Below, one piece after another: positions 1 to 31,796 of a stretch of 64,000 nucleotides of DNA; positions within the stretch are counted from its first letter, which is position 1; each line of letters opens with the position of its first letter. A program made the translations under genes and the position numbers. This stretch comes from Candidatus Limnocylindria bacterium (lineage in GTDB: Bacteria; Patescibacteriota; Saccharimonadia; Saccharimonadales; JAGQNK01), in NCBI GenBank assembly GCA_035489815.1, contig DATHJH010000032.1:32301-96300 (forward strand), given 5' to 3'. Under the pieces are notes generated by a model that saw only the letters and a list, made by a program, of their open reading frames with translations, made no database searches and was not told the origin of the DNA.

Positions 1-93
1 AGACATTTATAGCCTTGATGAGATTACAGAGAGAAGTCTATATAAGTTTGCAACTTACATTAACAAGCTGAACAAGGCGGATAAAAGCAAAAA

Positions 94-447
94 ATGAATG
101 ACTCTGACCACGGCAAGCGCAAAGACGCTGTGGTGGAGTTTTTAAGCGAACGTCCAACAAACCTTACATTGCGGACTATGGGCGCAAGACGTACCAAAGA
201 AGAGATGCAACACAATCTCGCTAGAAATCTGCTCTTAGGTTTCTTGACTCTATTTGTCGTCGCTATTATAGGCGCATATGTATTTGATCGAAGTTTTTGT
301 AGTAACCCCAATGTATGCGGCGATAACTTTGTAAACGTTAAGGTTGTTATTGAGACTATGTTGGATTTCGGCTCCCCATTCATAGGTATTATTATTGGAT
401 TTTTCTTTAGTGAAAAATTCTGGAATAATAGGAAAGAGAATGAGTAA
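94..447 (+). CDS. hypothetical small membrane protein (AT-rich edge region)
   Basis: 117-aa ORF with two hydrophobic segments (LLLGFLTLFVVAIIGAYVF, FGSPFIGIIIGFFF). It overlaps a 154-aa antisense ORF, so the coding strand is uncertain. No recognisable motif. Confidence 0.3.
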   Translation: MNDSDHGKRKDAVVEFLSERPTNLTLRTMGARRTKEEMQHNLARNLLLGFLTLFVVAIIGAYVFDRSFCSNPNVCGDNFVNVKVVIETMLDFGSPFIGIIIGFFFSEKFWNNRKENE

Positions 448-907
448 AAAACTAAACAAATCTGCCTCCCAGTCCGTTCCAAAAGAACCGAGCCCAACCG
501 GCATTGCCCGGTAGTTATACTCATTAACCAAAGAGCCGACGGGCTGTTGGCTACTCACCCCTAATCATTAATGACAATAGCCAACAATGTACTGAGTTTT
601 GTAATTTTCCTGTAGACGTGTTCGTTTACGTCAGAATAGCTCATCGGCGGATACTCAAAGACTGATGTTTCTAGGGCTTTTTGTTCACAGTCATTTTTCG
701 ATTGCTTACTACAAACACCCAGGCACCGGCACCGGTAAGTGCGATTATTAATAGCCACGTCACAAGTTTGTTCATCACTGCCATATGGATAACACTGCCT
801 ACTTGCTCGGAGGGGATACTCGCGTCATCCAGGACCTTTGTTCTTGGTGTGGAACCGGGACTCTGCTGTAGATTTATAGCTCGTAACGTCCGGCGTCATA
901 CTGTAAT

Positions 908-1921
908 ATGAAGCTTATGAAGAAGACTGCTGCTGTGCAGGCTAAAAAACTTGGTTCTCGTAAGCTTTTACTTGTCATTGTCATGGGTGTAATCGTGGTC
1001 ATTTGCGGGGCTGGATTTGGATACTCCAGGGTTCAAAATCGCAGCAGGGATTTACAGGCAAGCGACGTAAACCAGGACGGCACCATTGACATACTGGATG
1101 AAGCAGCAGAAATCGAAACAGCCCAGGAAACCCAGGATCAGCCTGAGGACGCTCCCGTTCAACCTGCACCAGGTGTTGAGGCACAAATTTATGACCTGAA
1201 GCTTATAGGCTTCTATCTCCATGACCATGCTTTAATCGGGGGAACGTATATACCCGATGGCGCTCCAAGCACCAGCACGGATTTTGAAATTTTCTCCAAA
1301 GGCATAGATCTAGGCACCTGTTCTGTTGTGCAGGACATCACCCACGACTACCCGGATAACAAAAAGCAAAAGATCACGCTCCAGTCAGTGGCTGCCCAAA
1401 AGGTCGTGCTGTATGACGGTGAAAACACCGTTACCGTTACCTGTCCCCAGCCAGGCGGGGACATTGTAAAGTCCATGAAGGTGCGGATGATGGATCTCAA
1501 GCCCGAACTGTGCCGGGATTTTTCATTCAGCGAGTCAGCCGTTACAGCCACGACGGTTGACGAACTAAAGAGCGGTGTTGCCGGCACCTGGTCAGGCTGC
1601 GTCACAACGCCTTGGCGACCCAAATACCATGTCGCCATCGTATTCAATAGCGACGGCACTTATTCGACCGCGTCAAATGAAGTGCTGGATGGGTACAGAA
1701 CCCCGGTGCTGTACTATGGCCTTGATGGTACCGATCCGAATAAAAAGTATTCGCTGGCCGCACTGCCCGACGGTACCTTTGGCGGCGACATTACCATCAC
1801 ATTTGGTGGCACAAGTGTTCAGAACCAGCTGAAAAACGTAAAGCTCATGTCAGACAAATTGTCCTTTGAATTTTTACATAGAAATCGGTACGGGCCGGTT
1901 AAGTTTGAACTGAGTCGTTGA
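908..1921 (+). CDS. hypothetical membrane-anchored exported protein with one EF-hand/dockerin-like Ca-binding loop
   Basis: 337-aa ORF. N-terminal basic stretch plus TM (LLLVIVMGVIVVICGAGFG), a DVNQDGTIDILD loop, an acidic linker, then a beta-rich domain. Confidence 0.6.
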   Translation: MKLMKKTAAVQAKKLGSRKLLLVIVMGVIVVICGAGFGYSRVQNRSRDLQASDVNQDGTIDILDEAAEIETAQETQDQPEDAPVQPAPGVEAQIYDLKLIGFYLHDHALIGGTYIPDGAPSTSTDFEIFSKGIDLGTCSVVQDITHDYPDNKKQKITLQSVAAQKVVLYDGENTVTVTCPQPGGDIVKSMKVRMMDLKPELCRDFSFSESAVTATTVDELKSGVAGTWSGCVTTPWRPKYHVAIVFNSDGTYSTASNEVLDGYRTPVLYYGLDGTDPNKKYSLAALPDGTFGGDITITFGGTSVQNQLKNVKLMSDKLSFEFLHRNRYGPVKFELSR

Positions 1922-1927
1922 CCAGGT

Positions 1928-3445
1928 CTAATGGACGACTGTCCACCTAAGGACTGTCTGAACCCTATGGTTCACTGACTGCACTGTGGGGTTTTGCCAG
2001 CGCCAGGTGTCCTCGGCCCGAATCAGCCAGCCGGCGGTGCCGCCTCCCCACACATACGTCAGAGCGAATGCCAGCAACAGGCAGGCTTTTAGGTGCCAGG
2101 CAAGCCTCATGAATCGCCTGTCAGCGATTGTCCAGCTAACCGCTTGAAGCATCACAACAAACACAATGATAAGGATAGGGAGCGTATATCGGGCCTGGAT
2201 AGCCTCGGCTTTCCACAGCCTGAGGTAAGAAAGGTAGTTGAAGAGCCACAGAATAGCCAGATACATCCCGGAAATACTTACCCCAAATCTTAAGTACGGC
2301 TGCCGCCAGAGCCGCTTCCACTGCAGCACCAACGCGGTCAAGCCCGTCACCAGCGCCAGATAGCCCACGGTCAACGGCAACGGCAACAGAGATTTAAGCT
2401 CGATCGGACCGAACGGTTCGAGGTCCGACACCACTCGCGTAGGGGTATGCATAAATATGGCGTAAAAACCGCGCATCATCCGGCTGAACCAATACTGGGA
2501 AAAGCTGAAGGGATTCCCGTAAGGTGCCTCTGGCGGCCGGTTCTGCACGTTTAAAACCTTATCCCGGTACCACGGCCCAAAATCCTCGCACAGTGAACGG
2601 GGCTGCACAACCTCACAAGACGGCCGGATTGACCCATACTGCACAACGTTGCCCCCGTAGCGTTCCGCGAACAGCCCGCCAACCACACCAAGCCCCAGAA
2701 GGATGAGTGCGAACGACAAGTCTTTGGGCGTCCTGCGCCAAGCCTTGCGGCAAACCAAAAGTAGCTTGCCCCGATTCCGCCGCCATATCACAATAGCCGC
2801 ATAGGCCAGTACTATGCCCGCCAGCGGCAAAAAAGTCTGCTTGATCAAAAGCGCTGTCATGCCCGTCAACACCAACAGCAAGCTGCGTTTCAGGAAGTCT
2901 TTGCGGCCTGTAATGAGTTCAGTAGCCTGGAGCAAGAAGACCGGCGTCAGCAGGAGCATCAGGTTGTCGTAACTCACATGCGCAGCCAAAAACGGCACAA
3001 TCGGCGTGGACACAAACGCCAGCAACGCCGCATGCGTCAGCCGCCGGGACACACCCCATCGAAGCAGCAGTTTTCTAAAGAGTATAAGAGCAACCGCCAC
3101 GAACACCACGTTCAGCAGGCGGGTCGCAACAATCAGTACCGCCTGATTGTCGGTAAAGATGTCAAAGAATCTGTACGGGAAGCTCATCAGGTAGTGATAC
3201 AGGAAGGACGGTTCGCGGGTCACGTCCCCCAGGACTCCCGTCCCTGCTGGCTGCTGGGCAATAACCGGCAACCACTGCCGGGCATACAACTGAATAACCC
3301 CCACGTGCACGAACTCGTCAAAAGGCAGCGGGTAGATGGCCGTGCAGGCCAGCCAGACGGATTGCACAACAAACAACAGAACAGTAGCTACAAAAAACTT
3401 GGTGCTGGCAAGCAGGTTGTGTATTCTCAGGGCAAGTTTTTCCAT
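1928..3445 (-). CDS. polytopic membrane protein, GT-C fold (PMT/ArnT-like) glycosyltransferase candidate, paralog 1
   Basis: 505 aa with more than 10 hydrophobic helices. Shares the motifs FLYHYLMSFPY and VSYDNL with the ORF at 19047-20465. Confidence 0.6.
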   Translation of the reverse strand: MEKLALRIHNLLASTKFFVATVLLFVVQSVWLACTAIYPLPFDEFVHVGVIQLYARQWLPVIAQQPAGTGVLGDVTREPSFLYHYLMSFPYRFFDIFTDNQAVLIVATRLLNVVFVAVALILFRKLLLRWGVSRRLTHAALLAFVSTPIVPFLAAHVSYDNLMLLLTPVFLLQATELITGRKDFLKRSLLLVLTGMTALLIKQTFLPLAGIVLAYAAIVIWRRNRGKLLLVCRKAWRRTPKDLSFALILLGLGVVGGLFAERYGGNVVQYGSIRPSCEVVQPRSLCEDFGPWYRDKVLNVQNRPPEAPYGNPFSFSQYWFSRMMRGFYAIFMHTPTRVVSDLEPFGPIELKSLLPLPLTVGYLALVTGLTALVLQWKRLWRQPYLRFGVSISGMYLAILWLFNYLSYLRLWKAEAIQARYTLPILIIVFVVMLQAVSWTIADRRFMRLAWHLKACLLLAFALTYVWGGGTAGWLIRAEDTWRWQNPTVQSVNHRVQTVLRWTVVH

Positions 3446-3477
3446 CTGTTACTCAACTATAACAGATGACTTTTTGG

Positions 3478-3580
3478 GCTGAGTGCTGCCGTGGCCCATC
3501 CTGAGGGGTCAGCAAGCGCCTCGGCGGCCAAAGGCCGTCCGTAAAAGCGCTCCTCAGGATGGGCCACGGCAGCACTCAGC
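3478..3580 (+). repeat. family-1 nested hairpin element, copy A (subtype 1a)
   Basis: Perfect 29-nt arms at 3478-3506 and 3552-3580 enclose the core GGTCAGCAAGCGCCTCGGCGGCCAAAGGCCGTCCGTAAAAGCGCT. Confidence 0.9.
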
Positions 3581-3662
3581 AGTCCGTAACCCTGCACCAT
3601 CCGCAATTTATGACTGCGAGTATTCTGTCATAGGTATAATATCCAAGTACTAAGGAGCATGT

Positions 3663-5018
3663 ATGTCAAAAGATTCACTGGCGGAAATATTTAAAGCATA
3701 TGACATCCGCGGCAAGGTCGGATCGCAGCTAACACCGGAAACAGTGGAGCGCATTGGTGCCGTATTCGGCGACTGGTTGCCTACAGAAGGCGTGGTAGCG
3801 GTGGGACATGACATGCGCCCGGACTCTGCCGAACTGGCACAGGCGCTTATCAAGGGCATTACAGTAACTGGCCGGGATGTTATGGATGTTGGCCAGGTGA
3901 CAAGTGACATGAGCTATTTTGCCGTTGGCAAATACAACCTGGCCGGGGCTGCCATGGTCACCGCCAGCCACAACCCGGGTGCCGACAACGGGATAAAACT
4001 CTACCGGGATCAGGTTATCGCTGTGGGCTTGGATGCCGGGTTAGACCAGATCCGCGACAGGGTACTTACAGATTACGCGCCAAAAACCGCCGCACAGCCC
4101 GGTCAAGTCACGGCAAAGGATATTACAGAGGACTGGCTTGCCCATGTTATGAGCTTTGTGCCGGATCCGGCCAAACTCAAGCCGTACAAAATGGCCGTGG
4201 ACGCCGGCAACGGTATGGCAGGTAAAATATTCCCGGAACTTGAACCCTATGTCCCGTTTGAAGTGACCGAACTGTACTTTGACCTGGACGGCACCTTCCC
4301 TAATCATGAGGCCAATCCGCAAAAGCCGGAAAATATGCAGGACCTCATCAAGACAGTCCAGGAAAACAAGCTGGACTTTGGCATTGCCTTTGATGGTGAC
4401 GGTGACCGCGCCGGGTTTGTGGATGACAAGGGCCGGATTGTGTCCGGAAGTGACCTGATCAGCATTGTTGCCCGGGAGTATTTGAAGAAGTACCCTGGGG
4501 CAGAAATAGTGCACGAGGTCCGCACCAGCCGGGCCACCCAGGAACTCGTCCGCGAATGGGGCGGCACACCCTTTAGAACCAAAGCCGGACGGGTCAGCAT
4601 CGGCACTGTCATGCGCGAACACGACGCCCCATTTGGCGGCGAGACAACCGGACACCTGTTTTTTAAGGAAAACTATTACGCCGACTCTGGCCTGATTGGC
4701 GCGATGATGGTCATCGTCGCCCTGCAGGCAGCTGGTAAAAAATTGTCGCAACTGGTGGACGAATACCACAGATATGCCACTATGCCAGAGGTAAATTTTG
4801 AAGTAGCTGATAAGGACGGAGCGTTAAAACGCCTGGCTCAGGCCTTTTCCAACGACACCCAGGATACCCTTGACGGGCTAACGGTGAATTTTGATGACGG
4901 TTGGTTTAATATCCGCGCCAGCAACACCGAACCAGTCATGCGCCTCAACGCCGAGGCCGGGACCCAGGCCCGCCTCGACGAGCTCGTTGCAAAAGTCACA
5001 CACCTAATCCAGGACTAG
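3663..5018 (+). CDS. manB: phosphomannomutase/phosphoglucomutase (alpha-D-phosphohexomutase family)
   Basis: 451 aa. FKAYDIRG N-terminus, catalytic TASHNPGADNG loop, metal-binding FDGDGDR. AAGGAG RBS upstream. Confidence 0.85.
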   Translation: MSKDSLAEIFKAYDIRGKVGSQLTPETVERIGAVFGDWLPTEGVVAVGHDMRPDSAELAQALIKGITVTGRDVMDVGQVTSDMSYFAVGKYNLAGAAMVTASHNPGADNGIKLYRDQVIAVGLDAGLDQIRDRVLTDYAPKTAAQPGQVTAKDITEDWLAHVMSFVPDPAKLKPYKMAVDAGNGMAGKIFPELEPYVPFEVTELYFDLDGTFPNHEANPQKPENMQDLIKTVQENKLDFGIAFDGDGDRAGFVDDKGRIVSGSDLISIVAREYLKKYPGAEIVHEVRTSRATQELVREWGGTPFRTKAGRVSIGTVMREHDAPFGGETTGHLFFKENYYADSGLIGAMMVIVALQAAGKKLSQLVDEYHRYATMPEVNFEVADKDGALKRLAQAFSNDTQDTLDGLTVNFDDGWFNIRASNTEPVMRLNAEAGTQARLDELVAKVTHLIQD

Positions 5019-5037
5019 CGGGATATACTAAACACAT

Positions 5038-6045
5038 ATGAAGATGCTCATTACCGGCGGCGCGGGGTTCATTGGTGCGAACTTTGTCCACTATATCCGC
5101 CAGCACTACCCTGACTATCAGATAATCGTCGTCGATAAACTTAATCAACAGGGTAACTTAGAAAACCTGGCTGCCGTTCGCGATCAGATAGAGTTTCATG
5201 AGTTTGACCTCATCGAAGAAGCCAAGCTGGTGCTTATCTTTGAGCAAGGCCTGGATTATGTCGTCCACTTTGCAGCCGAAACCAACGTAGACCGATCTAT
5301 CGAAGATCCGGACAATTTTGTGAACAGCAATGTGCTTGCCACCAACATCTTGTTGCGCCTCAGCCGTGACCACAAAGTCAAACGCTTCCACCACGTTTCT
5401 ACAGATGAGGTCTTTGGCAGCCTGGAACTCGGATCAGATGATAAGTTCAACGAGCACACCTCTTACGACCCGCGCAGTCCCTACTCTGCTACCAAAGCCG
5501 CCAGCGATCACCTGGTACGGTCCTACTTCCATACCTACGACCTGGATGTCACTATCAGTAACTGCTCCAACAACTACGGCCCTTACCAGGTACCAGAGAA
5601 CATTGTGCCGGTCTTTACCCTCATGGGCCTGCAGGACAAGCCGCTGACTATTTATGGCGACGGCAAAAGCATCCGGGATTACCTGTTTGTGCTGGACCAC
5701 TGCCGGGCCATTGACCTGATTCTGCGCAAAGGCCGTGCCGGTGAAACATACTGCGTCGGCGGTGGCCAGGAACAAAATGGCGTAGAAATCGCCGATGGTG
5801 TGCTCTCCATCCTGGATAAATCCCAGGAGCTGAAAAAGTTCGTGACCGACCGGCCCGGTCACGACCGCCGCTACGCCATTGACTACACCAAAATCAGCCG
5901 CGAACTGGGCTACCAACCAAGCGTGACATTTGAGGAAGGCCTGCGCCAAACCATCGACTGGTACCAGGCCAATACCGAGTGGTGGCAGCCCTACATGGAA
6001 AAGTTTTATGTACCGAAGTTCATGCAAAAGGACGTGGAACAATGA
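5038..6045 (+). CDS. rfbB: dTDP-glucose 4,6-dehydratase
   Basis: 335 aa. GGAGFIGANF Rossmann motif, YSATKAASDHL (YxxxK), full-length SDR-extended architecture. Confidence 0.9.
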   Translation: MKMLITGGAGFIGANFVHYIRQHYPDYQIIVVDKLNQQGNLENLAAVRDQIEFHEFDLIEEAKLVLIFEQGLDYVVHFAAETNVDRSIEDPDNFVNSNVLATNILLRLSRDHKVKRFHHVSTDEVFGSLELGSDDKFNEHTSYDPRSPYSATKAASDHLVRSYFHTYDLDVTISNCSNNYGPYQVPENIVPVFTLMGLQDKPLTIYGDGKSIRDYLFVLDHCRAIDLILRKGRAGETYCVGGGQEQNGVEIADGVLSILDKSQELKKFVTDRPGHDRRYAIDYTKISRELGYQPSVTFEEGLRQTIDWYQANTEWWQPYMEKFYVPKFMQKDVEQ

Positions 6046-6050
6046 GAGGC

Positions 6051-6159
6051 CCGGAACGGCTCACCCTTACGAATTCGTCAGGCTAAAGCTAACGCCATGG
6101 GCTGACCGAAGGTCACCCATAAAGTGGCCTAGAGAATTCGTAAGGGTGAGCCGTTCCGG
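6051..6159 (+). repeat. family-1 nested hairpin element, copy B (subtype 1b)
   Basis: Perfect 26-nt arms at 6051-6076 and 6134-6159. Core is GTCAGGCTAAAGCTAACGCCATGGGCTGACCGAAGGTCACCCATAAAGTGGCCTAGA. Confidence 0.9.
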
Positions 6160-6169
6160 CGGGAAAAAT

Positions 6170-7282
6170 ATGAATATAACCTTCTTTGGAACATACGACA
6201 CCAGCAACACCCCCCGGGTTCAAGCCCTCATTGACGGTATGCGCGCCCATGACCACAAGGTGACAGAATGCAACGCACCGCTCAAGGTCAACACCGCCTC
6301 CCGGGTAGCCATCATGCAACAGCCTTGGCGCTTGCCACTGCTGGGTGGGCACATCCTCCGCTGCTGGGTTCGTCTGATCGGAAAATCGCGACACCTTCCA
6401 CCAACTGATTTGGTGATAGTGGGACACTTGGGGCAGTTCGATATTCAGCTGGCGCATCTGCTGTTTAGAAAAAAACCTATTGCTCTAGACTACATGATCT
6501 CCGGCACCGAAACGGCCAACGACCGCGGGGCTAAAGGCGGACTCAAGACAAAAGTCCTCGGCTGGCTGGACCAGGCAGCCCTCAAAAAATCCGCCATTAT
6601 CATAGTAGATACTGAAGAACACCGCCTAGACCTACCCGGGCACCACCGATCCAAGGGTGTAGTCGTAAACGTCGGCGCCCCGCCCTCCTGGTTTGAGGCG
6701 GGCGAGGCAGAGGCCAAACGCAAAGTAACCAAACCCATTAGCATCGCCTTTTTCGGCAACTACATCCCCCTGCAGGGCGCCCCAATCATTGCCGAGGCCA
6801 CCCGCTCTATGCAATCTCCCGTCACCATAACCATGGTCGGCCCCCACGGCCAGGACTTTGCCAAAGCCCAGGCCGCCGCTCGGCCTGCCAAAGGCCCAGC
6901 CACCATCAAGTGGGTCGACCATTGGGTGCCCATAGACGAACTGCCCGCACTTATGGCTCAGCACGATGTGTGCCTGGGTGTCTTTGGTACCAGCCCCAAA
7001 ACTTATAAAGTCGTACCTAACAAAGTCTACCAGTGCGCCGCTGCCGGCGGTGCCATTGTGACCTCCGACACGCCGTCACAGCGGCGGGTCTTTGGCGCGT
7101 CCGCCATCTACACACCCCCCGGCGACGCCCACGCCCTGGCCGACGCCCTGGACAAACTGGCCAACAACCCCAAAGAAGTGCAACGCCTCCGCGCAGCCGC
7201 TTTCACCCTCGCCAAAAAATCCTTCCGCCCCGAACAAATCATCCGCCCCTTCCTCAAAAAACTCGAAGAACAAGGTCTATGA
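6170..7282 (+). CDS. glycosyltransferase (GT-B, GT1/GT4-like)
   Basis: The ORF-track frame opens at 5930, but that extension overlaps rfbB and the hairpin element. The ATG at 6170 (MNITFFGTYD) is the first start after the element. The C-terminal half is GT-B-like. Confidence 0.6.
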   Translation: MNITFFGTYDTSNTPRVQALIDGMRAHDHKVTECNAPLKVNTASRVAIMQQPWRLPLLGGHILRCWVRLIGKSRHLPPTDLVIVGHLGQFDIQLAHLLFRKKPIALDYMISGTETANDRGAKGGLKTKVLGWLDQAALKKSAIIIVDTEEHRLDLPGHHRSKGVVVNVGAPPSWFEAGEAEAKRKVTKPISIAFFGNYIPLQGAPIIAEATRSMQSPVTITMVGPHGQDFAKAQAAARPAKGPATIKWVDHWVPIDELPALMAQHDVCLGVFGTSPKTYKVVPNKVYQCAAAGGAIVTSDTPSQRRVFGASAIYTPPGDAHALADALDKLANNPKEVQRLRAAAFTLAKKSFRPEQIIRPFLKKLEEQGL

Positions 7283-7818
7283 GACAACTCGATCAACAAA
7301 AGTTCTGCGGCTGGTGTGGCGGCATGGTAACTTACCCTTCAAAATGGCAATCAGTCTGTAGCACATGCGGATACAAGCAATACCAAAACCCTTTACCATG
7401 CAGCAGCGCTCTTATTATCTGTGGCGATGAAGTACTAATACTCCAGCGGTCTATAGAACCAGGAAAGGGGAAGTTTGACCTCCCGGGCGGTTTTATGGAC
7501 ATGACAGACAAGTCCATAGAGGCAGCCGCTTACCGAGAACTGCACGAAGAATTGGGAATAAAACAGCGTATGATAACCCAGGTTACTTATTTTGGATCGG
7601 GCATACAGCCATACGAGTGGCAAGGAACAGAGCTACTCACAGCGCCCTGTTACTTTACCTGCCACATAACCACCAAGGACCGCGCCCGGCTTGTCGTTGA
7701 CCCCAAAGAGGGCTCTCAGGTACGCTGGGTAAGTCGGGCCGACGTACCGACCGTAGACTTTGCCTTTGATTTGGATAAGGAAATGCTTACCAGTTATTTT
7801 AGTAATAAAACACCTTAG
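7279..7818 (+). CDS. NUDIX hydrolase with N-terminal zinc ribbon
   Basis: Nudix box GGFMDMTDKSIEAAAYRELHEELGI. CGWCGG...CSTCG Cys4 ribbon. The start ATG overlaps the upstream stop (ATGA). Confidence 0.8.
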   Translation: MRQLDQQKFCGWCGGMVTYPSKWQSVCSTCGYKQYQNPLPCSSALIICGDEVLILQRSIEPGKGKFDLPGGFMDMTDKSIEAAAYRELHEELGIKQRMITQVTYFGSGIQPYEWQGTELLTAPCYFTCHITTKDRARLVVDPKEGSQVRWVSRADVPTVDFAFDLDKEMLTSYFSNKTP

Positions 7819-7830
7819 GAGGGTTATAGC

Positions 7831-8406
7831 GTGCAGCTTATAAAGACGGACATCGACGGAGTATTACAGGCTCAGCCAGACATACACGGTGACGAGCGCG
7901 GTTTTTTCATAGAAACCTACCGGCGGCAGTGGTTTCCAAATGGACGGGAAATGATCCAGGGCAACCGCGGCGACCGTAAAGCTGGCTCCATTGTGGGCTT
8001 TCACTATCACCTGCACCAAGCAGATTACTGGTACGTTCCCTTTGGCTCCGCCCGCGTCATCCTGCATGATTTTCGCAAGGACTCACCAACGTTTGGCGTG
8101 ACAGCCACCTTTGACCTTGGCGCAGACCTGAAAAGTCCGGATGATCCAAAAAAGTTCAATCACAATGGCCTCTACATCCCGCCCGGGGTAGCCCATGGCT
8201 TTGCTGCATTGTCCGACATGACTATCACCTACCTCGTGGACGGCTACTATAATCCAGCAGATGAACTAGGCATTGCCTGGAACGATCCCGATGTTGGAGC
8301 CGATTGGGGATTGAAAGATCCCGTCGCATCTGACCGCGACAAAAAGAATCCATTGCGCAAAGATATTCCGATTGAGCTAAGACCGCACTTTAAACTCCGG
8401 GGGTAA
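7831..8406 (+). CDS. rfbC: dTDP-4-dehydrorhamnose 3,5-epimerase
   Basis: 191 aa, GTG start. GDERGFFIETY, FHYH...QADYWYV, cupin-type RmlC pattern. Confidence 0.85.
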   Translation: MQLIKTDIDGVLQAQPDIHGDERGFFIETYRRQWFPNGREMIQGNRGDRKAGSIVGFHYHLHQADYWYVPFGSARVILHDFRKDSPTFGVTATFDLGADLKSPDDPKKFNHNGLYIPPGVAHGFAALSDMTITYLVDGYYNPADELGIAWNDPDVGADWGLKDPVASDRDKKNPLRKDIPIELRPHFKLRG

Positions 8407-8409
8407 ATC

Positions 8410-9270
8410 ATGGATGATTCAAAGTTTTTTATTGTCGGGGCAAACGGACAACTGGGTACTGCGCTGCGGGCTCAGTATCCGCAGGCTCAGTTTGCTGACA
8501 TTGATGAAATGGATATTACTGATCGCGCGTCGGTCATGGGCTACGACTGGTCCGGCGTTACCCATATCCTCAACGCCGCTGCCTACACGAACGTGGACGG
8601 GGCAGAAACCGCCGAAGGCCGGATGGCCGCCTGGAAGGTCAACGCCGCAGCCGTAGGCTACCTGGCAGAAGTTGCGCGGCAGCATGACATCACCCTGGTG
8701 CACATTTCTTCGGATTACGTTTTTGACGGCACCAAACATCCACATACCGAACAGGAGGACTTTGCGCCACTATCCGTCTACGGCGCCAGCAAGGCGGCGG
8801 GCGACCTGCTAGTTGCTTCTTTGCCAAAGCACTACATCCTGCGCACCAGCTGGGTCATTGGCGAGGGCAACAACTTTGTCCGTACCATGTTGGGCCTGGG
8901 TGCAAAAGGAGTGTCGCCAACAGTCGTAGCAGACCAAGTTGGCCGCCTCACCTTCACGAGCGAGCTTGTCCGGGCAATCGACCATCTCCTTTCAACTAGC
9001 GCAGCACATGGCACATATAATGTCAGTAATAGTGGTGAACCAGCCAGTTGGGCAGACATCGCCCGCCACATATTTGAAATTGCTGGACACAAAGACCTCA
9101 CCGTTACCGACACCACCACGGCCGAATACTTTGCCGGCAAAGAAAACATCGCCGCCCGCCCCCTGCACAGCACCTTTGACCTCACTAAACTTACTGCCAC
9201 TGGCTTTGAAAGCCGCGGTTGGTATGATGAATTAAGGGAATACGTCAAAAAGGAGCTTTCCACGCAATGA
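8410..9270 (+). CDS. rfbD: dTDP-4-dehydrorhamnose reductase
   Basis: 286 aa. VGANGQLG, YGASKAAGD (YxxxK). Confidence 0.85.
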   Translation: MDDSKFFIVGANGQLGTALRAQYPQAQFADIDEMDITDRASVMGYDWSGVTHILNAAAYTNVDGAETAEGRMAAWKVNAAAVGYLAEVARQHDITLVHISSDYVFDGTKHPHTEQEDFAPLSVYGASKAAGDLLVASLPKHYILRTSWVIGEGNNFVRTMLGLGAKGVSPTVVADQVGRLTFTSELVRAIDHLLSTSAAHGTYNVSNSGEPASWADIARHIFEIAGHKDLTVTDTTTAEYFAGKENIAARPLHSTFDLTKLTATGFESRGWYDELREYVKKELSTQ

Positions 9271-10133
9271 AGGGAATTATTTTAGCCGGTGGATCGGGCA
9301 CACGCCTGTACCCCATCACCCACGGCATCTGCAAGCAACTGATGCCGATCTACGACAAGCCAATGATCTACTATCCCTTGTCCACGCTGATGCTGGCTGG
9401 GATTCGGGACATCTTGATCATTACCACCCCGCACGACCAGGAACGGTTCAAACAGCTGCTGGGCGATGGTTCACGCGTGGGCTGTCACTTTGAGTACGTC
9501 ATTCAGGATCAGCCGCGCGGATTAGCCGACGCATTTATAGTTGGCGCTGACTTCATTGGGAATGACAAAGTCTGCCTGATCCTTGGCGACAACATATTTT
9601 ATGGCTCCGCCTTTGGTGAACAACTCAAAGAAAACACCGATCCCGACGGCGGCATCATCTACGCCTACCATACGTCCACTCCCGAAAGACTGGGTGTGGT
9701 GGAATTCGACAAAGACATGAATGCAATTTCAATTGAAGAAAAGCCAGAAAAACCCAAATCCAACTATGGCATCCCAGGCCTATACTTCTACGACAATGAC
9801 GCTGTAGAGATCGCCAGACAAGCAAAACCAAGTGCCCGGGGCGAACTGGAAATCACCGAAATCCATAACGGCTACCTCCGCCAGAACAAACTAAAAGTCA
9901 GCATTATGGACCGCGGTACGGCATGGATAGACCCGGGTAATTTTGATGACGTCCTAAAAGCCTCACAGTTTGTCCAGATTATCGAGGAAAGACAGGGTCA
10001 AAAAATCGGTTGCATAGAGGAGATCGCCTGGGAAGAGGGATACATTACCACCGCCCAGCTACAAGCCCTGGCCGAACCCCTCAAAAAGAGCGGCTACGGA
10101 CAGTATCTGCAGTCGCTGGTACAAGAAGCTTAG
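9267..10133 (+). CDS. rfbA: glucose-1-phosphate thymidylyltransferase
   Basis: 288 aa. MKGIILAGGSGTRLYPIT, with RmlA pattern throughout. ATGA overlap with rfbD. Confidence 0.95.
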   Translation: MKGIILAGGSGTRLYPITHGICKQLMPIYDKPMIYYPLSTLMLAGIRDILIITTPHDQERFKQLLGDGSRVGCHFEYVIQDQPRGLADAFIVGADFIGNDKVCLILGDNIFYGSAFGEQLKENTDPDGGIIYAYHTSTPERLGVVEFDKDMNAISIEEKPEKPKSNYGIPGLYFYDNDAVEIARQAKPSARGELEITEIHNGYLRQNKLKVSIMDRGTAWIDPGNFDDVLKASQFVQIIEERQGQKIGCIEEIAWEEGYITTAQLQALAEPLKKSGYGQYLQSLVQEA

Positions 10134-10157
10134 GCCCGCCTCCAAACGATCTCGGAC

Positions 10158-10263
10158 CCCATCACAAATACCCTCTTATTCCGTCAGGGTCAGCAAGCGC
10201 CTCCGAGGGCCCATGGCCCGAGGTAAAAGCGCCCTAGAGGAATAAGAGGGTATTTGTGATGGG
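10158..10263 (+). repeat. family-1 nested hairpin element, copy C (subtype 1a)
   Basis: Perfect 25-nt arms at 10158-10182 and 10239-10263. Core is GTCAGGGTCAGCAAGCGCCTCCGAGGGCCCATGGCCCGAGGTAAAAGCGCCCTAGA. Confidence 0.9.
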
Positions 10264-10289
10264 CCGATGCCTAGTAATAGTCATAACCG

Positions 10290-11258
10290 TTATTTATCGA
10301 AGCGTTGGCGCTTGGCGGCTTCCAGAATCTTTTCCTGATTATTCAGCAGCCGGTCCAGCATGTCCGCTACCAGGCCAAGCGCCCAAACCACCAGCGCCAA
10401 GGTCGTGAGATAGAGGCCAAGGGCCCCGACGGCAATGTAAGGGGTAATGCGATCGGTGCGTATCCAATGCACAAAGGTAAACCCGCCAAGCAGCAGACCC
10501 GGGATAATGAGTATAACCCCCAGATTCCCGAAAAACTTCAAGGGTGCATAGTCGCGGTACGCCCGGAGTATATTCAGCGCACTGCCAAACAGGAATTGCC
10601 AAAAACTTTTCACCACCCGGGACTTTCGGCCCTCGTAGTACTTCACATGGATAGGCACAGCCACGATATTCATCTTTTTGACGGCCAGCACCTGAAAGGA
10701 CTCCTGCGTATAGGTGTAGGTACTGTTGATGTTTATGGCCAGCATGGCCTTTTTGGTGTAGGCCCTAAAGCCGCAGGTGACGTCATAAAACCGCTCGCCT
10801 GACAGATTGCCCACAATCCACGCCCCGAGCCGGTTAGCCCAGTACTTGCCGCCCGGCATGCCTGCCGGTTTGCGGCGCTGCCCGGTATCAGGGTCAGTGA
10901 AGCGATCGGCGGCTACAAAGTCTGCGCCGTCTTGCAGGATTGGTTTAAGCAGCGTCGGGATGTCCTCTGGTGCAAACTGCAAATCACCGTCAATATTTAC
11001 GGCAATATCCGCATCCATGGACAGCGCCGTTTCTATGGCTTGCTCAAACCTATAGGCCAGCCGCTTTTGCTTGACGCCCTCTATGATCTTGGTGGCACCG
11101 GCCCGGCGGGCGGCGTCTGCCGTGCTGTCGGTGCTGCCGTCGCTGACCACCAGCGTTTCAATCTTATCCACGCCAGGTATCTTTTTGGGAATCCTCTTCA
11201 GGAGTTCACCAATAGTCTCTGCCTCGTCCTTACAGATAGAAAATATTATTAGCTTCAT
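10290..11258 (-). CDS. GT2 polyprenyl-phosphate glycosyltransferase (GtrB/CsbB/DPM1-like) with C-terminal TM helices
   Basis: GT-A N-terminal domain (LIIFSICKDE, VVSDGSTD, NIDGDLQF) followed by two C-terminal TM helices. The maximal ORF reaches 11300. The ATG at 11258 (MKLIIF) is preferred. Confidence 0.7.
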   Translation of the reverse strand: MKLIIFSICKDEAETIGELLKRIPKKIPGVDKIETLVVSDGSTDSTADAARRAGATKIIEGVKQKRLAYRFEQAIETALSMDADIAVNIDGDLQFAPEDIPTLLKPILQDGADFVAADRFTDPDTGQRRKPAGMPGGKYWANRLGAWIVGNLSGERFYDVTCGFRAYTKKAMLAININSTYTYTQESFQVLAVKKMNIVAVPIHVKYYEGRKSRVVKSFWQFLFGSALNILRAYRDYAPLKFFGNLGVILIIPGLLLGGFTFVHWIRTDRITPYIAVGALGLYLTTLALVVWALGLVADMLDRLLNNQEKILEAAKRQRFDK

Positions 11259-11320
11259 GAGTGGTGTATTTTTCTCCCTATTGCCACATTTTACTGTCAA
11301 AGTGTTTTATAATCTAGTAA

Positions 11321-12595
11321 ATGAAGATAGCTGTGATTGGATTAGGGTACGTTGGCCTGCCCCTGGCGCTCCTGGCAGAAGAAAAAGGCTTTGACGTCAT
11401 TGGTATTGATCTGGACAAAAACAAACTAACCAGACTGAGTAAACGCCAGCCGATCATTGATGACACGATCGCAAACAAACAGCTGGAAAAAACAAACATA
11501 CGCTTTTCTGACGACTTTTCGCTGCTACAGAACGTAGATATAGCAATTGTCTGCGTACCTACCCCTGTTGATGAAGCCAAAAACCCTGATCTGGGCCCCG
11601 TAAAAGGTGCCTCTGTCAGCGTGGCAAAACAGTTAAAGCCCGGCAGCTTGCTGGTGATCGAATCAACCATTAACCCAGGAGTCTGCGACGAAGTCGTTAT
11701 CCCAATCATAGAAAAAGAAACCGACCACGTCATAGGCAAGTCCCTGTACATAGCTCACTGCCCGGAGCGCATCAATCCCGGAGACCCCAAGTGGCATGTC
11801 GGCAACATCAACAGAGTACTCGGTGCCGATTCCGACAAAGCCCTGGATATGGCTTACAAATTTTATGACCAGCTCGTAGACGCCAAGGTCAAAAAGATGG
11901 GCAGCATCAAGGAAGCCGAGGCCTGCAAAGTGGTTGAAAACTCATTCCGGGACATCAACATAGCCTTTGTAAATGAGCTGGCTATGTCTTTTGACAAGCT
12001 GGGTATCAATGTAGTCAACGTCATAGACGGTGCCGCCACCAAGCCCTTTGCTTTTATGGCTCACTACCCTGGTATTGGCGTCGGCGGACACTGCATACCG
12101 GTAGACCCCTATTACCTGATTGAATATGCACGCAGTAATGGGTTTGAGCACAAGTTCCTGTCGCTGGCCCGCAGCATCAACGAATCCATGCCTGTCTATG
12201 CCATTGATCAGTTGGAACAAGCACTCATCCAAAAAAGCGGCCGGACACTTGATGGTGCATCCGTAACAGTGCTGGGATTGTCCTATAAGCCCAATGTGGC
12301 AGATGATCGTGAAAGTCCAGCCTATGTAGTCATAAGGGCTCTAAAGAAGCGCGGCGCACGGGTAACCGGGTATGACCCGTACCTCCTGGAAAAGTCAGAC
12401 GCCAAATCTCTGCCGGAAGCGCTCCAAGACAAAGACGCTGTCATACTAGTAACCAGCCATCAGGAATTCAAGGACCTTGCACCAGAAGCCTTCGCGGGCG
12501 TATCTGTACTGCTTGACGGCCGGAATGACCTCATCAAACACAAGGCCGCGCTTAATGAGCTAGGCGTAGTCTATCTAGGCCTTGGCCTGAACTAA
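11321..12595 (+). CDS. nucleotide-sugar dehydrogenase (UDP-glucose/GDP-mannose dehydrogenase family; WecC/WbpA-like)
   Basis: 424 aa. MKIAVIGLGYVGLPLA, catalytic GVGGHCIPVDP. Confidence 0.85.
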   Translation: MKIAVIGLGYVGLPLALLAEEKGFDVIGIDLDKNKLTRLSKRQPIIDDTIANKQLEKTNIRFSDDFSLLQNVDIAIVCVPTPVDEAKNPDLGPVKGASVSVAKQLKPGSLLVIESTINPGVCDEVVIPIIEKETDHVIGKSLYIAHCPERINPGDPKWHVGNINRVLGADSDKALDMAYKFYDQLVDAKVKKMGSIKEAEACKVVENSFRDINIAFVNELAMSFDKLGINVVNVIDGAATKPFAFMAHYPGIGVGGHCIPVDPYYLIEYARSNGFEHKFLSLARSINESMPVYAIDQLEQALIQKSGRTLDGASVTVLGLSYKPNVADDRESPAYVVIRALKKRGARVTGYDPYLLEKSDAKSLPEALQDKDAVILVTSHQEFKDLAPEAFAGVSVLLDGRNDLIKHKAALNELGVVYLGLGLN

Positions 12596-12600
12596 AGCCC

Positions 12601-13956
12601 ATGGAAAAAACAATTACCATCATTGGCGCAGGCTATGTAGGGTTGTCCACCGCAGCCCTGCTTTCTAACTGTGGGTACCAGGTCTACCTGATAGATATCA
12701 ACCAGGAGCGTTTGGACACCATTGCCAGCGGCAAATCATTTTTCTTTGAGGAAGGTATAGACCCGTTGATTGCAGCAGGCATCAGCGCCGGTTTGCTCAT
12801 TCCCACGGCAGACTACAAAACGGGGGTGTCAAAAAGTTCCATAGTATTTTCCTGTGTGGGCACGCCCGACAACCCTGACGGCAGCTCTAATCTGACCTAC
12901 GTATTCTCTGCGGCCAAAGAAGCCGCCTCGTACCTGCAGCCCGGTTCTGTCTATGTCCAGAAAAGCACCGTTCCCGTTGGCACTGGCGGCAGGGTAAGCC
13001 AGGAGTTTCAGAAGGCAGGCACAAAGGTAGCTTATGTGTCTAACCCTGAATTCCTGCGCGAAGGAACGGCCATCAGCGACACTCTGTGGTTTGACAGGAT
13101 CATATGCGGGGGCTCCGACGAAGAAGCCGTCCAGGCCGTGTTTACAATCTATAGATCGCTTGAGGAGTGCCGCGAGAAGATTGCGAACCTGACAAAACTA
13201 AAAACACCGGACGTTCAGCTGCCCGGTTCTTACATCGCAACCACGCTTGAGAGCGCAGAGCTCATCAAGGTCACTGCCAATGCCTTTTTGGCGCTAAAGA
13301 TTTCGTTCGCCAACTCCATTGCTAAACTGTCTGACCAGGTTGGCGCGGATATAACTGAAGTTATGGACGCCGTTGGCCAGGACAATAGAATTGGCCGGGC
13401 CTTTTTAAATGCCGGCCGGGGCTACGGCGGCGGCTGTTTTCCCAAGGATATGAGCGGGCTGATTGATGCCATGCACGAACACAGTGCCGACCCGCAGATC
13501 CTCACCGCCGCCCAGGAGGTGAACGCCTCTATGCCCGGCTATATTGTGAACAAAGTCCAGACCGCTATGGGCGACCTGCACGGCAAGAAGATTGCTGTGC
13601 TGGGTCTGGCTTTCAAGGCAGGCACCAGCGACGCCAGAAGGTCGCAGGGTGTGCGTATGGCAAACATCCTATCCAAATCAGAGGCCGTTGTTCGGGTCTA
13701 TGACCCGGAAGCCAGCCATGAAGCAGCTGAGGACCTGCGGCCAAACGTCGTTGTCTGCCAGGACCTCCATGCAGCCGTCAAAGGGGCAGATGCCGTGTTG
13801 GTAGCAACGGAATGGCCAGAGCTCATCCAAATGGATCTGAAGCGGCTGGTCAAGGACGCGGCTAAGCCTTGTATACTTGTTGATTGCATGAACAGATTCT
13901 CATCAGCCCAAGCCGCCGAAGCTGGGTTACAATACATAGGAGTCGGAAAAAGATGA
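12601..13956 (+). CDS. ugd: UDP-glucose 6-dehydrogenase
   Basis: 451 aa. IIGAGYVGLSTA, GYGGGCFPKD catalytic Cys motif. Confidence 0.8.
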   Translation: MEKTITIIGAGYVGLSTAALLSNCGYQVYLIDINQERLDTIASGKSFFFEEGIDPLIAAGISAGLLIPTADYKTGVSKSSIVFSCVGTPDNPDGSSNLTYVFSAAKEAASYLQPGSVYVQKSTVPVGTGGRVSQEFQKAGTKVAYVSNPEFLREGTAISDTLWFDRIICGGSDEEAVQAVFTIYRSLEECREKIANLTKLKTPDVQLPGSYIATTLESAELIKVTANAFLALKISFANSIAKLSDQVGADITEVMDAVGQDNRIGRAFLNAGRGYGGGCFPKDMSGLIDAMHEHSADPQILTAAQEVNASMPGYIVNKVQTAMGDLHGKKIAVLGLAFKAGTSDARRSQGVRMANILSKSEAVVRVYDPEASHEAAEDLRPNVVVCQDLHAAVKGADAVLVATEWPELIQMDLKRLVKDAAKPCILVDCMNRFSSAQAAEAGLQYIGVGKR

Positions 13957-14708
13957 GTCACAACACAACAAGTAACAACAAATTCTTCAAAGCACCCAGG
14001 TATCTCTTCCGAAAATACAATATCCTGAACCTGATCCAAACAATTCCCGTAAAAACCTTTGCAGACGTGGGGTGCGGAGCGGGCGAGTTGGCGTGTTCCC
14101 TGGCCCAAAGAGGATACAAAGGCGTGGGGATCGATTTTTCTGATGACGCACTGGCTGTTGCAAATGGCATCCGAAAAGAAAGAGGCCTGACCACCAAACA
14201 ACTGTCCTTCAACAAAGGCAGCCTCAGCGTCCTCCCTAAAAAATCTGATCTGATTATCTGCTGCGAGGTCATAGAACACCTGGAGGATGACAACAAATTC
14301 TTACAAGACGTCAAAAAGTACGGCGATTATTTTATCTTCTCTGTCCCCGCCCGCATGCAGTGGTTTGATCAATTTGACGAAAAGGTCGGCCATTTTCGCC
14401 GCTATGAAAAAGGTGAACTTATCAAACAGCTGGAAAAGCATGGGTACGTCATTAAGCGCTTTTCTTCCTACGGCTATCCTTTTATCAATGTCACCCGCCT
14501 GATGCGAAAAGCCCTGGCCGGCAAGGTAAAAAAGCAAAAAAACGCAGAGGAAATGACCAAACAAAGCGGCATCAACCCCATAAAGACCAAATACCTGCAG
14601 CTCTTAAATATAGAACCGTTTTTGTTGCCCCTGTACTGGATGAGCCGGCCTTTCAACAGATATAATCTATCTGAGGGGTACGTTGTCCTGTGTCAAAAGA
14701 AACAATAA
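13953..14708 (+). CDS. class I SAM-dependent methyltransferase
   Basis: FADVGCGAGELA motif I, CCEVIEHL. The ATG at 13953 overlaps the ugd stop (ATGA). Confidence 0.75.
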   Translation: MSHNTTSNNKFFKAPRYLFRKYNILNLIQTIPVKTFADVGCGAGELACSLAQRGYKGVGIDFSDDALAVANGIRKERGLTTKQLSFNKGSLSVLPKKSDLIICCEVIEHLEDDNKFLQDVKKYGDYFIFSVPARMQWFDQFDEKVGHFRRYEKGELIKQLEKHGYVIKRFSSYGYPFINVTRLMRKALAGKVKKQKNAEEMTKQSGINPIKTKYLQLLNIEPFLLPLYWMSRPFNRYNLSEGYVVLCQKKQ

Positions 14709-15553
14709 CCGCTTCTCTGTCCAGCGCCCGCAGATACATCGGCTTTTTTGTCATAGTTGCTGCCGCCGGAGCTTTTGTATGGTACCTCAGAGCCCACCCG
14801 GGAGCCCTGGACCCGCTGAGAGCGACGCCTTTGTACCTTATCCCGCTACTCGTTGTGCTGTACGGCCTGTTTTTACTCACTAACTTTTTCATTACCGCCA
14901 TTACCATAACTATAAGCGGCAAGTCCTATCCCTTGAAGGACTCGCTGATGCTAACCGTCTACTCCACGTTAGTGAATTTCTTTGGCCCCCTGCAAAGCGG
15001 CCCTGGATTCCGGGCGGTATACCTAAAAAAGAAGATCGGGCTGGGCATCAAGGACTACACGCTGGCCACCATGCTGTACTATGGGGCGTTCCTGGCCATT
15101 AGCCTGGTTATGATGCTTGGTATTCGCTACCCACTGGCGACGCTGGCTATAGTGGTCGTCATCACCGGGGCTGGCGTATGGTTCTTTCGGACGCAAAAAT
15201 TAGCCACTTTGATTCGTAACTTTGCTATCGTAGGGCTGGTGACATTGGTGCAGCTGGCACTCATAGCCATTATCTATTACCTGGAACTGCGGGCAACTGG
15301 CTATCATCCCTCACTGGCAGCAACCCTCACCTACACTGGTAGCGCCAACCTGGCTTTGTTCGTAGCCTTTACCCCCGGGGCAATTGGCATTCGGGAATCC
15401 TTCATATACTTTTCCCAGTCCATCCACCACATACCAACCGATCATATCCTGAGCGCCGGCCTGCTGGACCGATCAATCTACCTGATCTTCCTTGGGATTT
15501 TATTCATAAGTTCCAGCAGCCTGCACATCAGCAGCAAACTCCGGGCCAGATAG
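14690..15553 (+). CDS. polytopic membrane protein (flippase-like / LPG-synthase-TM-like, UPF0104-type)
   Basis: 287 aa, GTG start, about 8 TM helices. The function is inferred from topology and context only. Confidence 0.45.
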   Translation: MSKETITASLSSARRYIGFFVIVAAAGAFVWYLRAHPGALDPLRATPLYLIPLLVVLYGLFLLTNFFITAITITISGKSYPLKDSLMLTVYSTLVNFFGPLQSGPGFRAVYLKKKIGLGIKDYTLATMLYYGAFLAISLVMMLGIRYPLATLAIVVVITGAGVWFFRTQKLATLIRNFAIVGLVTLVQLALIAIIYYLELRATGYHPSLAATLTYTGSANLALFVAFTPGAIGIRESFIYFSQSIHHIPTDHILSAGLLDRSIYLIFLGILFISSSSLHISSKLRAR

Positions 15554-15577
15554 CTGCCAAAGGGCAGTCCAAGGCTG

Positions 15578-15725
15578 CCGACCCACCCTCACTTTCCCGT
15601 CATACCGGCCTTGATCTGCTATCCAGAAGCGTTATTGATCAGGCCTGGATTCCCAGTCAAGCCTGCCCTCGGCTCCGATCGGGGGCTGGGAATGACAGGG
15701 GTGGGAGAAAAAGTGGGGGGTAGGT
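15578..15725. repeat. family-2 structured element, copy D (MITE-like)
   Basis: About 148 bp bracketed by the imperfect direct repeat CAGTC(C)AAGGCTG (15565-15577 and 15726-15737). It contains hairpins GGCCTTGATC...GATCAGGCC and ATTCCCAG-TCAAGCC...CTGGGAATGAC. It is homologous to the element at 60087-60206. Confidence 0.7.
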
Positions 15726-15772
15726 CAGTCAAGGCTGTTAAAGCTTACGCTTTTATGCTATAATTATATTTG

Positions 15773-16318: not shown

Positions 16319-16321
16319 CTC

Positions 16322-18883: not shown

Positions 18884-18899
18884 CTGGCTCTTCTTTTTT

Positions 18900-19006
18900 G
18901 GCCGAGTCAGCTACTTTCGTTCCTCTAGGGCGCTTTATGGGCGATCCTTACGGATCGGCCCATGGCGCTTGCTTACCCGGACGGAACGAAAATAACTGGC
19001 TCGGCC
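18900..19006 (-). repeat. family-1 nested hairpin element, copy F (subtype 1b, core on minus strand)
   Basis: 24-nt arms at 18900-18923 and 18983-19006 with 21 WC pairs. The minus-strand core is GTCCGGGTAAGCAAGCGCCATGGGCCGATCCGTAAGGATCGCCCATAAAGCGCCCTAGA. Confidence 0.9.
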
Positions 19007-31782: not shown

Positions 31783-31796
31783 TGGCCCGTGGAGTT

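Follow-up and report, generated by a model that had tools for sequence, protein, structure and literature searches.

A Perfect Palindrome between Divergent Genes of a Saccharibacteria Genome Is One Member of a Hairpin-Forming Intergenic Repeat Family

A 64,000-nt stretch of contig DATHJH010000032.1 (positions 32,301 to 96,300; hereafter the window) carries, between two divergently oriented genes, a perfect inverted repeat designated copy A (3478-3580, plus strand). Does this palindrome serve the two genes beside it, or is its presence there independent of them? The original prediction placed it in a 5' untranslated region (UTR) or in a cruciform acting between two promoters. We found that copy A is one member of a family of hairpin-forming intergenic repeats of ~105 nt, of which at least 13 members are known. 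The family is unusual in that the apical core is conserved rather than the termini, in that the arms are near saturation yet still paired, and in that one strand is constrained.

The two 29-nt arms of copy A (3478-3506 and 3552-3580) were 100% complementary in our repeat search, as had been predicted, and enclose a 45-nt gap, giving an element of 103 nt. The arm sequence occurred twice in the window, and none of 100 dinucleotide-preserving shuffles contained it even once. Folded as RNA, the 121-nt copy A region reached a minimum free energy of -88.7 kcal/mol, compared with -45.7 +/- 3.7 kcal/mol in shuffles (z = -11.8); with DNA parameters, the values were -54.5 and -21.7 kcal/mol, respectively (z = -11.9). 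The core of the element (3507-3551, plus strand) reads GG-UCAGCAA-GC-GCC, followed by an inner hairpin (CGGCGGCC AAA GGCCGUCCG) and then by UAAAA-GC-GCU, and consists of an asymmetric internal loop and a small hairpin.

A window-wide inverted-repeat scan returned several hairpins with the same geometry and unlike arm sequences, which displayed a common central core once they were co-oriented. A covariance model, R1, was built from 11 copies and run against the window with filters off. Six copies were recovered at 53-86 bits, and the next best match scored 13 bits; copy A matched over 3496-3562 (74.6 bits, E = 1.2e-18). Its designation as one copy among several was thus borne out by five further copies in the window, which we refer to as B to F. 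Across all known copies, the element measures ~98-116 nt with arms of 25-33 bp, and the consensus fold is a single long hairpin composed of an outer stem, an asymmetric internal loop, and a variable capping hairpin. The core common to all copies spans ~55 nt and comprises this loop and a small covarying hairpin. The loop has 7-8 nt on its 5' side (UCAGCAA or UAAAGCUA), a 2-bp RC/GY mini-helix with a bulged G, and GCC opposite (U)AAAA. Two types of core were observed: type 1 in copies A, C, and E (...AGG-GUCAGCAAGCGCC-(hairpin)-GUAAAAGCGCC-CU...) and type 2 in copies B and D (...AGGC-UAAAGCUARCGCC-(hairpin)-AUAAAGYGGCC-U...). The corresponding patterns occurred three times and twice in the window, respectively, compared with an expectation of 0, and the boxes GGTCAGCAAGCGCC and GTAAAAGCGC were invariant across all type-1 copies. 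In addition, a 3x3 internal loop, 5'-GUC/AGA-3', lies 4 bp below the core in B, C, D, F, and a metagenome copy (L024, below), and hence in both core types; the same position is fully paired in A, E, and others. The arms of B, C, and D are interrupted only by this conserved loop. The description of copy A as having the longest perfect arms therefore holds for uninterrupted pairing and not otherwise, because the arms of these three copies reach 31-33 nt at 90-91% complementarity.

The arms are unlike between copies, yet they pair within each copy. In the alignment, paired cells amounted to 88.8%, compared with 68.1% in shuffles. Both sides had changed in 18 of 23 pairs, a degree of compensation reached by none of 500 shuffles, and among full-length elements this was true of 25 of 28 pairs; when the partner columns were slid by 1-3 positions, pairing dropped to 31-49%. 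These results demonstrated that pairing in the arms and in the inner hairpin is under selection. The constraint also has a direction. Mismatches compatible with wobble pairing numbered 16 on the sense strand versus 4 on the antisense strand (p = 0.012), or 12 versus 2 in a conservative subset. In 12 of 13 copies, pyrimidines predominate in the 5' arm (63% Y; 137 C versus 73 G) regardless of genomic strand, and the conserved unpaired boxes are likewise asymmetric. These biases indicate that selection acts on one strand in its folded form, with a fixed polarity, whether as RNA or as single-stranded DNA (ssDNA), and not on a symmetric duplex site. Helix covariation and strand-specific tolerance of G.U pairs are together the generic signature of a structured RNA, and a folded ssDNA strand would fit them too.

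We next considered the distribution of the family. The window carries rnpA, yidC, jag, dnaA, dnaN, and recF and has a GC-skew minimum near 46-48 kb. Its DnaA shares 86% identity with one unclassified metagenome-assembled genome (MAG) and 73-80% with dozens of Candidatus Saccharibacteria/Saccharimonadales MAGs; thus, the window comes from a TM7 genome of the candidate phyla radiation (CPR). An identical protein to that of the manB-like gene beside copy A is labelled "Candidatus Limnocylindria bacterium" at NCBI, whereas DnaA and synteny place the window in Candidatus Saccharibacteria, and the Limnocylindria label is probably a binning error. R1 was run against ~1.4 Mb in total from 89 loci of related Saccharibacteria, and no match was found either in the dnaA surroundings of 80 Saccharibacteria genomes (1.3 Mb) or in 120 kb from the loci of the nearest manB relatives (71-74% identical). 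Long hairpins of the same geometry were limited to 4 weak ones in the 1.3 Mb of relatives, compared with at least 6 in the 64-kb window. Exact core patterns had no match in the GTDB representative genomes and none in IMG/VR. A scan of Joint Genome Institute (JGI) metagenomes gave 66 pattern matches, among which 10 loci were genuine, with both arms and inner hairpin, and represented 7 distinct copies (L037 = L062, L024, L045, L053, L033 = L055, L003 = L048, and L041). All of them came from three related samples (Ga0193742, Ga0193752, and Ga0193753). The remaining matches lacked arms or inner hairpin and were dismissed as chance. The family was therefore found only in a narrow Saccharibacteria lineage.

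Comparison of related genomes suggests how the copies reached their positions. Contig L045 is syntenic with the window from 29.0 to 38.8 kb at ~76% nucleotide identity. Copy E (31682-31782, minus strand; type-1 core, 75.9 bits) has four arm mismatches, three of which are G.U in the sense orientation, and lies in the divergent spacer between the genes for an ABC-2 permease and a TPR protein. This spacer measures 365 nt in the window, of which copy E contributes 101 nt, a second repeat 169 nt, and the remainder 95 nt. Copy E is missing from L045, where the spacer is 95 nt and aligns over the common promoter-proximal part, and the likely -10 boxes near E are kept in that contig. Conversely, L045 has its own copy (5069-5183, minus strand) exactly at the stop codon of the TPR gene, where the window has 13 nt from the stop to the next ATG; the TPR open reading frame (ORF) of L045 runs ~37 codons into the element before ending. 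Copy D (50012-50117, minus strand; type-2 core, GTC/AGA loop, 53.9 bits) occupies the convergent spacer between recF and a 526-aa ORF, which is 196 nt in the window compared with ~11-22 nt in the relatives L088 and L083. As judged from these sequence comparisons, E, D, and the L045 copy each represent a discrete insertion, and copy positions vary from one related genome to another. The second repeat in the spacer of copy E (31795-31963, ~169 nt), which lies 12 nt from that copy, is unrelated to the family. It has 19-bp terminal inverted repeats (TIRs; AGAACCTGCTCATGATCTC) and an internal hairpin (CCTGCTGTACCCATAGGTACGGCAGG), matches L024 (10694-10875) and L053 (3176-3316) at 74-79%, is missing from the syntenic L045, and has no Rfam match; a further mobile element and a conserved non-coding RNA are both conceivable.

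The metagenome copies sit at different loci and are alignable over the element only, and no orthology was found between them and the window copies. Nevertheless, arm segments are common to copies at non-orthologous loci (for example, 16 of 22 positions between L045 and L033), indicating that arms were copied together with the core and diverged afterwards. Across all pairs, identity over the 14 arm positions nearest the core was 38% compared with 28% in shifted registers, with a transition/transversion ratio of 0.91 compared with 0.62, whereas the outer 10 positions were at background similarity (30% versus 28%). The arms near the core are diverged homologues and not unrelated sequences. At the termini, (G/C)CTGA...TCAG(C/G) was present in 5 of 13 copies, including A. 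No target-site duplication exceeded the control: the mean best match between flanking 8-mers was 4.5, compared with 4.2 for mismatched flank pairs. The copy in L024 (12693-12809) is the sole one with a flanking direct repeat, the 7-nt CTTGAGA on both sides, which may have arisen by chance or from a recent insertion that duplicated 7 nt. We also noted that the pentamer GTCAG recurs at three sites of the element, namely, in the inner part of the 5' arm (as CGTCAGG, in B, C, D, and L024), within the type-1 core (as GGTCAGC), and at the 3' terminus (as GTCAGG or TCAGC, in L037, L003, L024, and A); 10183-10195 is an example in the window. It could be a recognition or cleavage motif.

The three remaining window copies complete the range of contexts. 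Copy B (6051-6159, plus strand; type-2 core CTAAAGCTAACGCC...ATAAAGTGGCC, GTC/AGA loop, 54.4 bits) starts 5 nt past the stop codon of an epimerase/dehydratase gene and ends 10 nt before the ATG of a GT1 gene, sense to both. Copy C (10158-10263, plus strand; type-1 core, GTC/AGA loop, 85.7 bits) lies in the convergent spacer between an rmlA-like gene and a GT2 gene, and its helix, with a 2-nt bulge, continues out to 10152-10267. Copy F (18900-19006, minus strand; hybrid core CGGGTAAGCAAGCGCC...CCCATAAAGCGCCCTAGAGG, three arm mismatches, 53.5 bits, E = 1.2e-12), which was added by the R1 search, sits between two plus-strand genes and is therefore antisense to both. Thus, the window copies occupy two divergent (A and E), two tandem (B, sense; F, antisense), and two convergent (C and D) spacers. 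When the tandem contexts of window and metagenome copies are counted together, four copies run in the sense direction and two (F and L053) in the antisense direction. Copies on one replichore point both ways, and orientation is unrelated to the flanking genes or to the replichore. No U-tract or T-run follows any copy on either strand. A terminator scan of positions 1-20000, confined to loops of 3-8 nt, listed none of A, B, C, and F, and the terminator-like sites in this stretch, the only one scanned, numbered 24 compared with 24.3 in shuffles. Neither tRNA nor tmRNA genes were detected in the 64 kb, and a Pfam search of ~50 ORFs revealed no gene for a transposase, HUH nuclease, reverse transcriptase, or RNase III in the window. 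Across the whole window, no Rfam family, self-cleaving ribozymes such as hairpin, twister, and hammerhead and the HEARO family included, reached its gathering score; when the limit was relaxed to E <= 10, copies A and B matched only long-hairpin models of the miRNA-precursor type, far below threshold. A likeness to twister and hairpin ribozymes (AAGCGCC, UAAAAG, and N*GUC/AGA) was not borne out by Rfam, and the GUC/AGA loop, only 4 bp from the core loop and without a junction, does not fit the geometry of a hairpin ribozyme. The arms were also considered as guides or antisense sequences to other loci and had no match elsewhere in the window or in the 1.7 Mb of other loci compared.

We then returned to the surroundings of copy A. 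The spacer between the divergent genes is 217 nt, the sum of the 103-nt element and 114 nt. The start of the minus-strand ORF (1928-3445) lies 33 nt to the left, and the ATG of the manB-like ORF of the PGM/PMM family (3663) lies 83 nt to the right, both exactly as predicted. The label GT-C for the minus-strand ORF was not confirmed, since its sole match was a sub-threshold one to a DUF2142 membrane protein (E = 0.0018). A perfect TATAAT, the candidate -10 box of manB (3635-3640, plus strand), is positioned between copy A and manB, 22 nt upstream of the ATG; its best -35 is ATGACT at 19-nt spacing, and a ribosome-binding site (RBS), AAGGAG, follows at 3652-3657. On the other side, an extended -10-like box, TGTTATAGT (3456-3464, minus strand), is positioned 10 nt upstream of the minus-strand ATG, again between copy A and the gene. 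A strict two-hexamer sigma-70 scan of this spacer called no promoter, and both boxes are assigned by inference from sequence. If these assignments are right and the boxes are used, transcription of both genes starts on the gene side of the element, an arrangement that the original prediction had named as one half of its own refutation; copy A would then be transcribed from neither and probably belongs to neither 5' UTR. Beside copy A, a 9-bp hairpin (CATCTGTTA...TAACAGATG, 3443-3468) spans the minus-strand start codon and overlaps the candidate extended -10 box; it may have a role in translation initiation of that gene.

Taken together, these observations led us to favor, with some reserve, a reading in which copy A is an insertion of a lineage-restricted, non-coding, intergenic palindromic repeat of the kind represented by repetitive extragenic palindromes (REPs) and bacterial interspersed mosaic elements (BIMEs), transposable elements of the miniature inverted-repeat type (MITEs), and Rickettsia palindromic elements (RPEs), belonging to one small Saccharibacteria clade. 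Spread of such an element, present or past, would depend on an enzyme acting in trans that recognizes the conserved core, and not the termini, once the single strand has folded (as ssDNA, possibly as RNA). A mutation in one arm would either be eliminated or be transferred to its partner when replication undergoes quasipalindrome template-switching, a process that in E. coli makes quasipalindromes "perfect or more perfect" (PMC7202029), and selection on the fold would help to keep the arms perfectly complementary within a copy. Copy A would have landed in a ~114-nt divergent spacer, distal to both likely -10 boxes, and by virtue of that position any effect on the two genes would be a by-product and not its purpose; it may affect both promoters incidentally via spacing, supercoiling, or cruciform formation. 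Several findings weigh against this proposal. The window lacks a gene for a mobilizing enzyme (transposase, HUH nuclease, or reverse transcriptase), and target-site duplications do not exceed chance; with termini that are only partly conserved, no known transposition chemistry fits. No decayed copies were seen in the window, where nothing scored between 13 and 53 bits, and ten type-1 copies show 100% identity in the core boxes despite near-saturated arms. In L003, the arms are badly decayed and the core is intact. These features resemble purifying selection on every copy in place, and hence a host-level function, more than neutral decay of selfish DNA. Finally, no near-identical strain was found, the nearest manB being 74% identical, so that no exact empty-site junction was obtained; exact protein matches led only 1-2 kb beyond the window.

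The alternatives differ in which of these findings they accommodate. That copy A is a locus-specific regulatory hairpin of the GT-C-like/manB divergent promoters, acting as a 5' UTR or a cruciform, agrees with its position between the divergent starts and with the extreme stability of its helix, but we consider it very unlikely. Copy A is one of at least 13 members in unrelated contexts, the same element being found in convergent (C and D), tandem (B and F), and divergent (E) spacers; its presence in all spacer types and both orientations indicates that it is not specific to a promoter architecture. Moreover, the candidate -10 boxes, as read from the sequence, would place the element outside both transcription units, and by synteny the sister copies are plain insertions into pre-existing short spacers. 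No R1 match was found anywhere in the loci of manB relatives, whose upstream spacers are ~92-137 nt; the upstream genes there differ from those of the window, so that these are not strictly orthologous spacers. Least credible of all is a factor-independent bidirectional terminator. C and D do occupy convergent spacers, and the family forms very strong hairpins, but neither strand shows a U-tract after any copy, A and E lie upstream of genes, and copy B stands 10 nt before the next start codon, with no room for a new promoter. For copy A, the original prediction had itself recognized that an element between divergent genes can be a terminator of neither. An architectural DNA site, in which a cruciform or the core (direct repeats of AAGCGCC ~33 nt apart) would bind a nucleoid or topology protein and so organize supercoiling domains or insulate promoters, would account for an orientation independent of genes and replication direction, for copies in all spacer types, divergent promoters included, and for the very stable DNA-parameter fold. 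BIME/REP elements bind IHF and gyrase. However, a symmetric cruciform or duplex leaves the strand-specific wobble bias unexplained, the covarying inner hairpin is too short to extrude alone, and the absence of the family from close relatives with the same gene order argues against a general architectural need; we therefore regard this explanation as improbable.

A more serious competitor, still clearly short of probable, is a structured RNA recruited by the host, in which a ~30-bp double-stranded RNA (dsRNA) stem and a conserved loop would be bound or cut by a protein, possibly at an RNase III-type processing or stabilizing site, and would set mRNA boundaries and stability in a genome without canonical terminators. 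Strong covariation in all helices and the 16:4 excess of G.U over A.C, which favors one strand, are consistent with it, as is the retention of unpaired purine-rich boxes and of the non-canonical GUC/AGA loop in both core types. Cores are intact in all copies even though arm divergence has reached saturation, a pattern suggestive of in-place selection. In addition, stop codons are found 5-22 nt away from B, C, D, and F, and canonical terminator-like sites are no commoner than in shuffles over positions 1-20000. Correia elements, moreover, bind RNase III and are cut or protected by it (PMC2649163). On the other hand, two of the six tandem-context copies (F and L053) are antisense to their flanking genes. 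The divergent-spacer copies A and E stand upstream of likely -10 boxes and would not be expected to be crossed by transcription of the neighbors, and no promoter of the element's own is apparent. No Rfam family matched even at E <= 10, positions are not conserved in the sole syntenic genome pair, and copy B leaves 10 nt to the next start codon, which would bury the RBS region beside a 33-bp stem. It is conceivable, though rather unlikely, that the conserved asymmetric loop and the GUC/AGA loop form the active site of a new, CPR/Saccharibacteria-specific element read on one strand, which would be either a protein-recognition or catalytic RNA processed from ~30-bp dsRNA hairpins or the recognition fold of an ssDNA mobilization that reads the hairpin tip.

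Among known systems, the family behaves most like REP and RPE elements. With REP/BIME elements and their REP-associated tyrosine transposase (RAYT; HUH Y1), it shares dispersed intergenic non-coding palindromes in either orientation, the absence of target-site duplication, a presumed recognition as a folded single strand, and a possible by-product effect on mRNA stability or DNA topology. REPs, however, are imperfect palindromes of 20-40 nt, closely similar within a genome, and carry a conserved 5' tetranucleotide of the GTAG/GTGG type by the stem, whereas the members of this family measure 98-116 nt, have a conserved apical core and stems that differ between copies, and lack a GTAG box; no RAYT gene was found in the 64-kb window. 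Like Rickettsia RPEs, these are palindromes of ~100-150 nt that proliferated in a small, reduced genome of a host-dependent bacterium (PMC10969869), in old diverged families for which no mobilizing enzyme is known and with insertions tolerated at or inside gene ends, as in the TPR ORF of L045. RPEs differ in often lying in frame inside genes and encoding a conserved peptide, whereas the present copies are intergenic, show covariation of the RNA or ssDNA type, and have no sequence similarity to RPEs. MITEs and the Correia elements of Neisseria (CREE) are likewise ~100-150 nt, non-coding, multi-copy, and mostly intergenic, with hairpin-forming transcripts and insertion polymorphism between relatives, and they may land beside promoters (PMC10969869, PMC2649163). 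The family does have the MITE attributes of a length under 300 bp, no coding capacity, multiple copies, and insertion polymorphism. MITEs, however, are defined by conserved TIRs that match the transposase of an insertion sequence (IS) and by target-site duplications, both absent in our tests, and the conservation pattern is inverted, with the core kept and the arms variable. Integron attC sites resemble the family in being folded strands of defined polarity that are read by structure, in having variable sequence with kept pairing, and unpaired spacers or extrahelical bases, and in sitting between genes. Their boxes R''/R' (RYYYAAC ... GTTRRRY) are at the outer ends and their center is variable, which is the opposite arrangement; they also form co-oriented arrays by cassette genes, whereas the present copies are in mixed orientation among housekeeping genes (dnaA, recF, and rml), with no integrase. 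The RNase III hairpins between cistrons of phage T7 offer dsRNA stems of two to three helical turns with a conserved internal loop. All T7 sites are sense to one transcript, in contrast to the mixed orientation and the two copies upstream of likely promoters seen here.

Other repeats and gene clusters were noted in the window. Two related palindromes (24975-25022 and 25544-25597; ACTGTAC...TCCGGCCGGA...GTACAGT), the second a perfect one of 54 nt, flank ORF 25034-25549, which has a PaaX central/Cas2-like domain, and look like candidate operators for a regulator encoded by that ORF. A nested 171-nt hairpin (16333-16503) with outer arms of 28 nt at 93%, inner arms of 27 nt at 85%, and an apical 15-bp hairpin lies between ORF 15770-16318 and an 853-aa ORF and is a singleton, with no match in any of the loci compared. 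Long inverted repeats at 42773-42853 and 37165-37291 have cores unlike that of the family; the former has a 24-nt arm segment in common with L003 (95.8%), and the latter crosses the junction between asparagine synthase and epimerase genes. A cluster resembling a type IV secretion system (51808-60450, minus strand) includes a TraG/VirB4-type P-loop ATPase, a PrgI-family protein, a phage-tail-lysozyme-like protein, and a 917-aa VanY-domain protein. A KilA-N domain protein is encoded at 28708-29538 and a PIN-domain protein at 48217-48645, between dnaN and recF.

Genomes of Saccharibacteria and other CPR bacteria are ~1 Mb and are thought to be streamlined, and their non-coding repertoire is, to our knowledge, almost unexplored. 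We found no description of interspersed repeats or structured non-coding elements from Saccharibacteria or Patescibacteria in Rfam or in the literature searched. The family is of the bacterial interspersed palindromic repeat kind, in a phylum for which we found no such element described. In the window, the element occurs about once per 10 kb and has enlarged spacers that are otherwise minimal, so that 11-22 nt became 196 nt in one case and 95 nt became 365 nt in another. The conservation of the element is the reverse of that of a transposon, with a conserved tip and ends that vary but co-vary. For copy A, these results caution against a reading as a promoter-specific regulator, and the covariance model is available for annotation of the family. 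If the family is selfish, even the genomes of ultra-small epibionts would maintain mobile palindromes, through an as yet undescribed mechanism that reads structure; if it is a functional RNA, it would be a new motif with clean covariation that is directly testable. With both clean covariation and inverted conservation, the family is a tractable candidate for structure-reading mobilization or for a new RNA motif.

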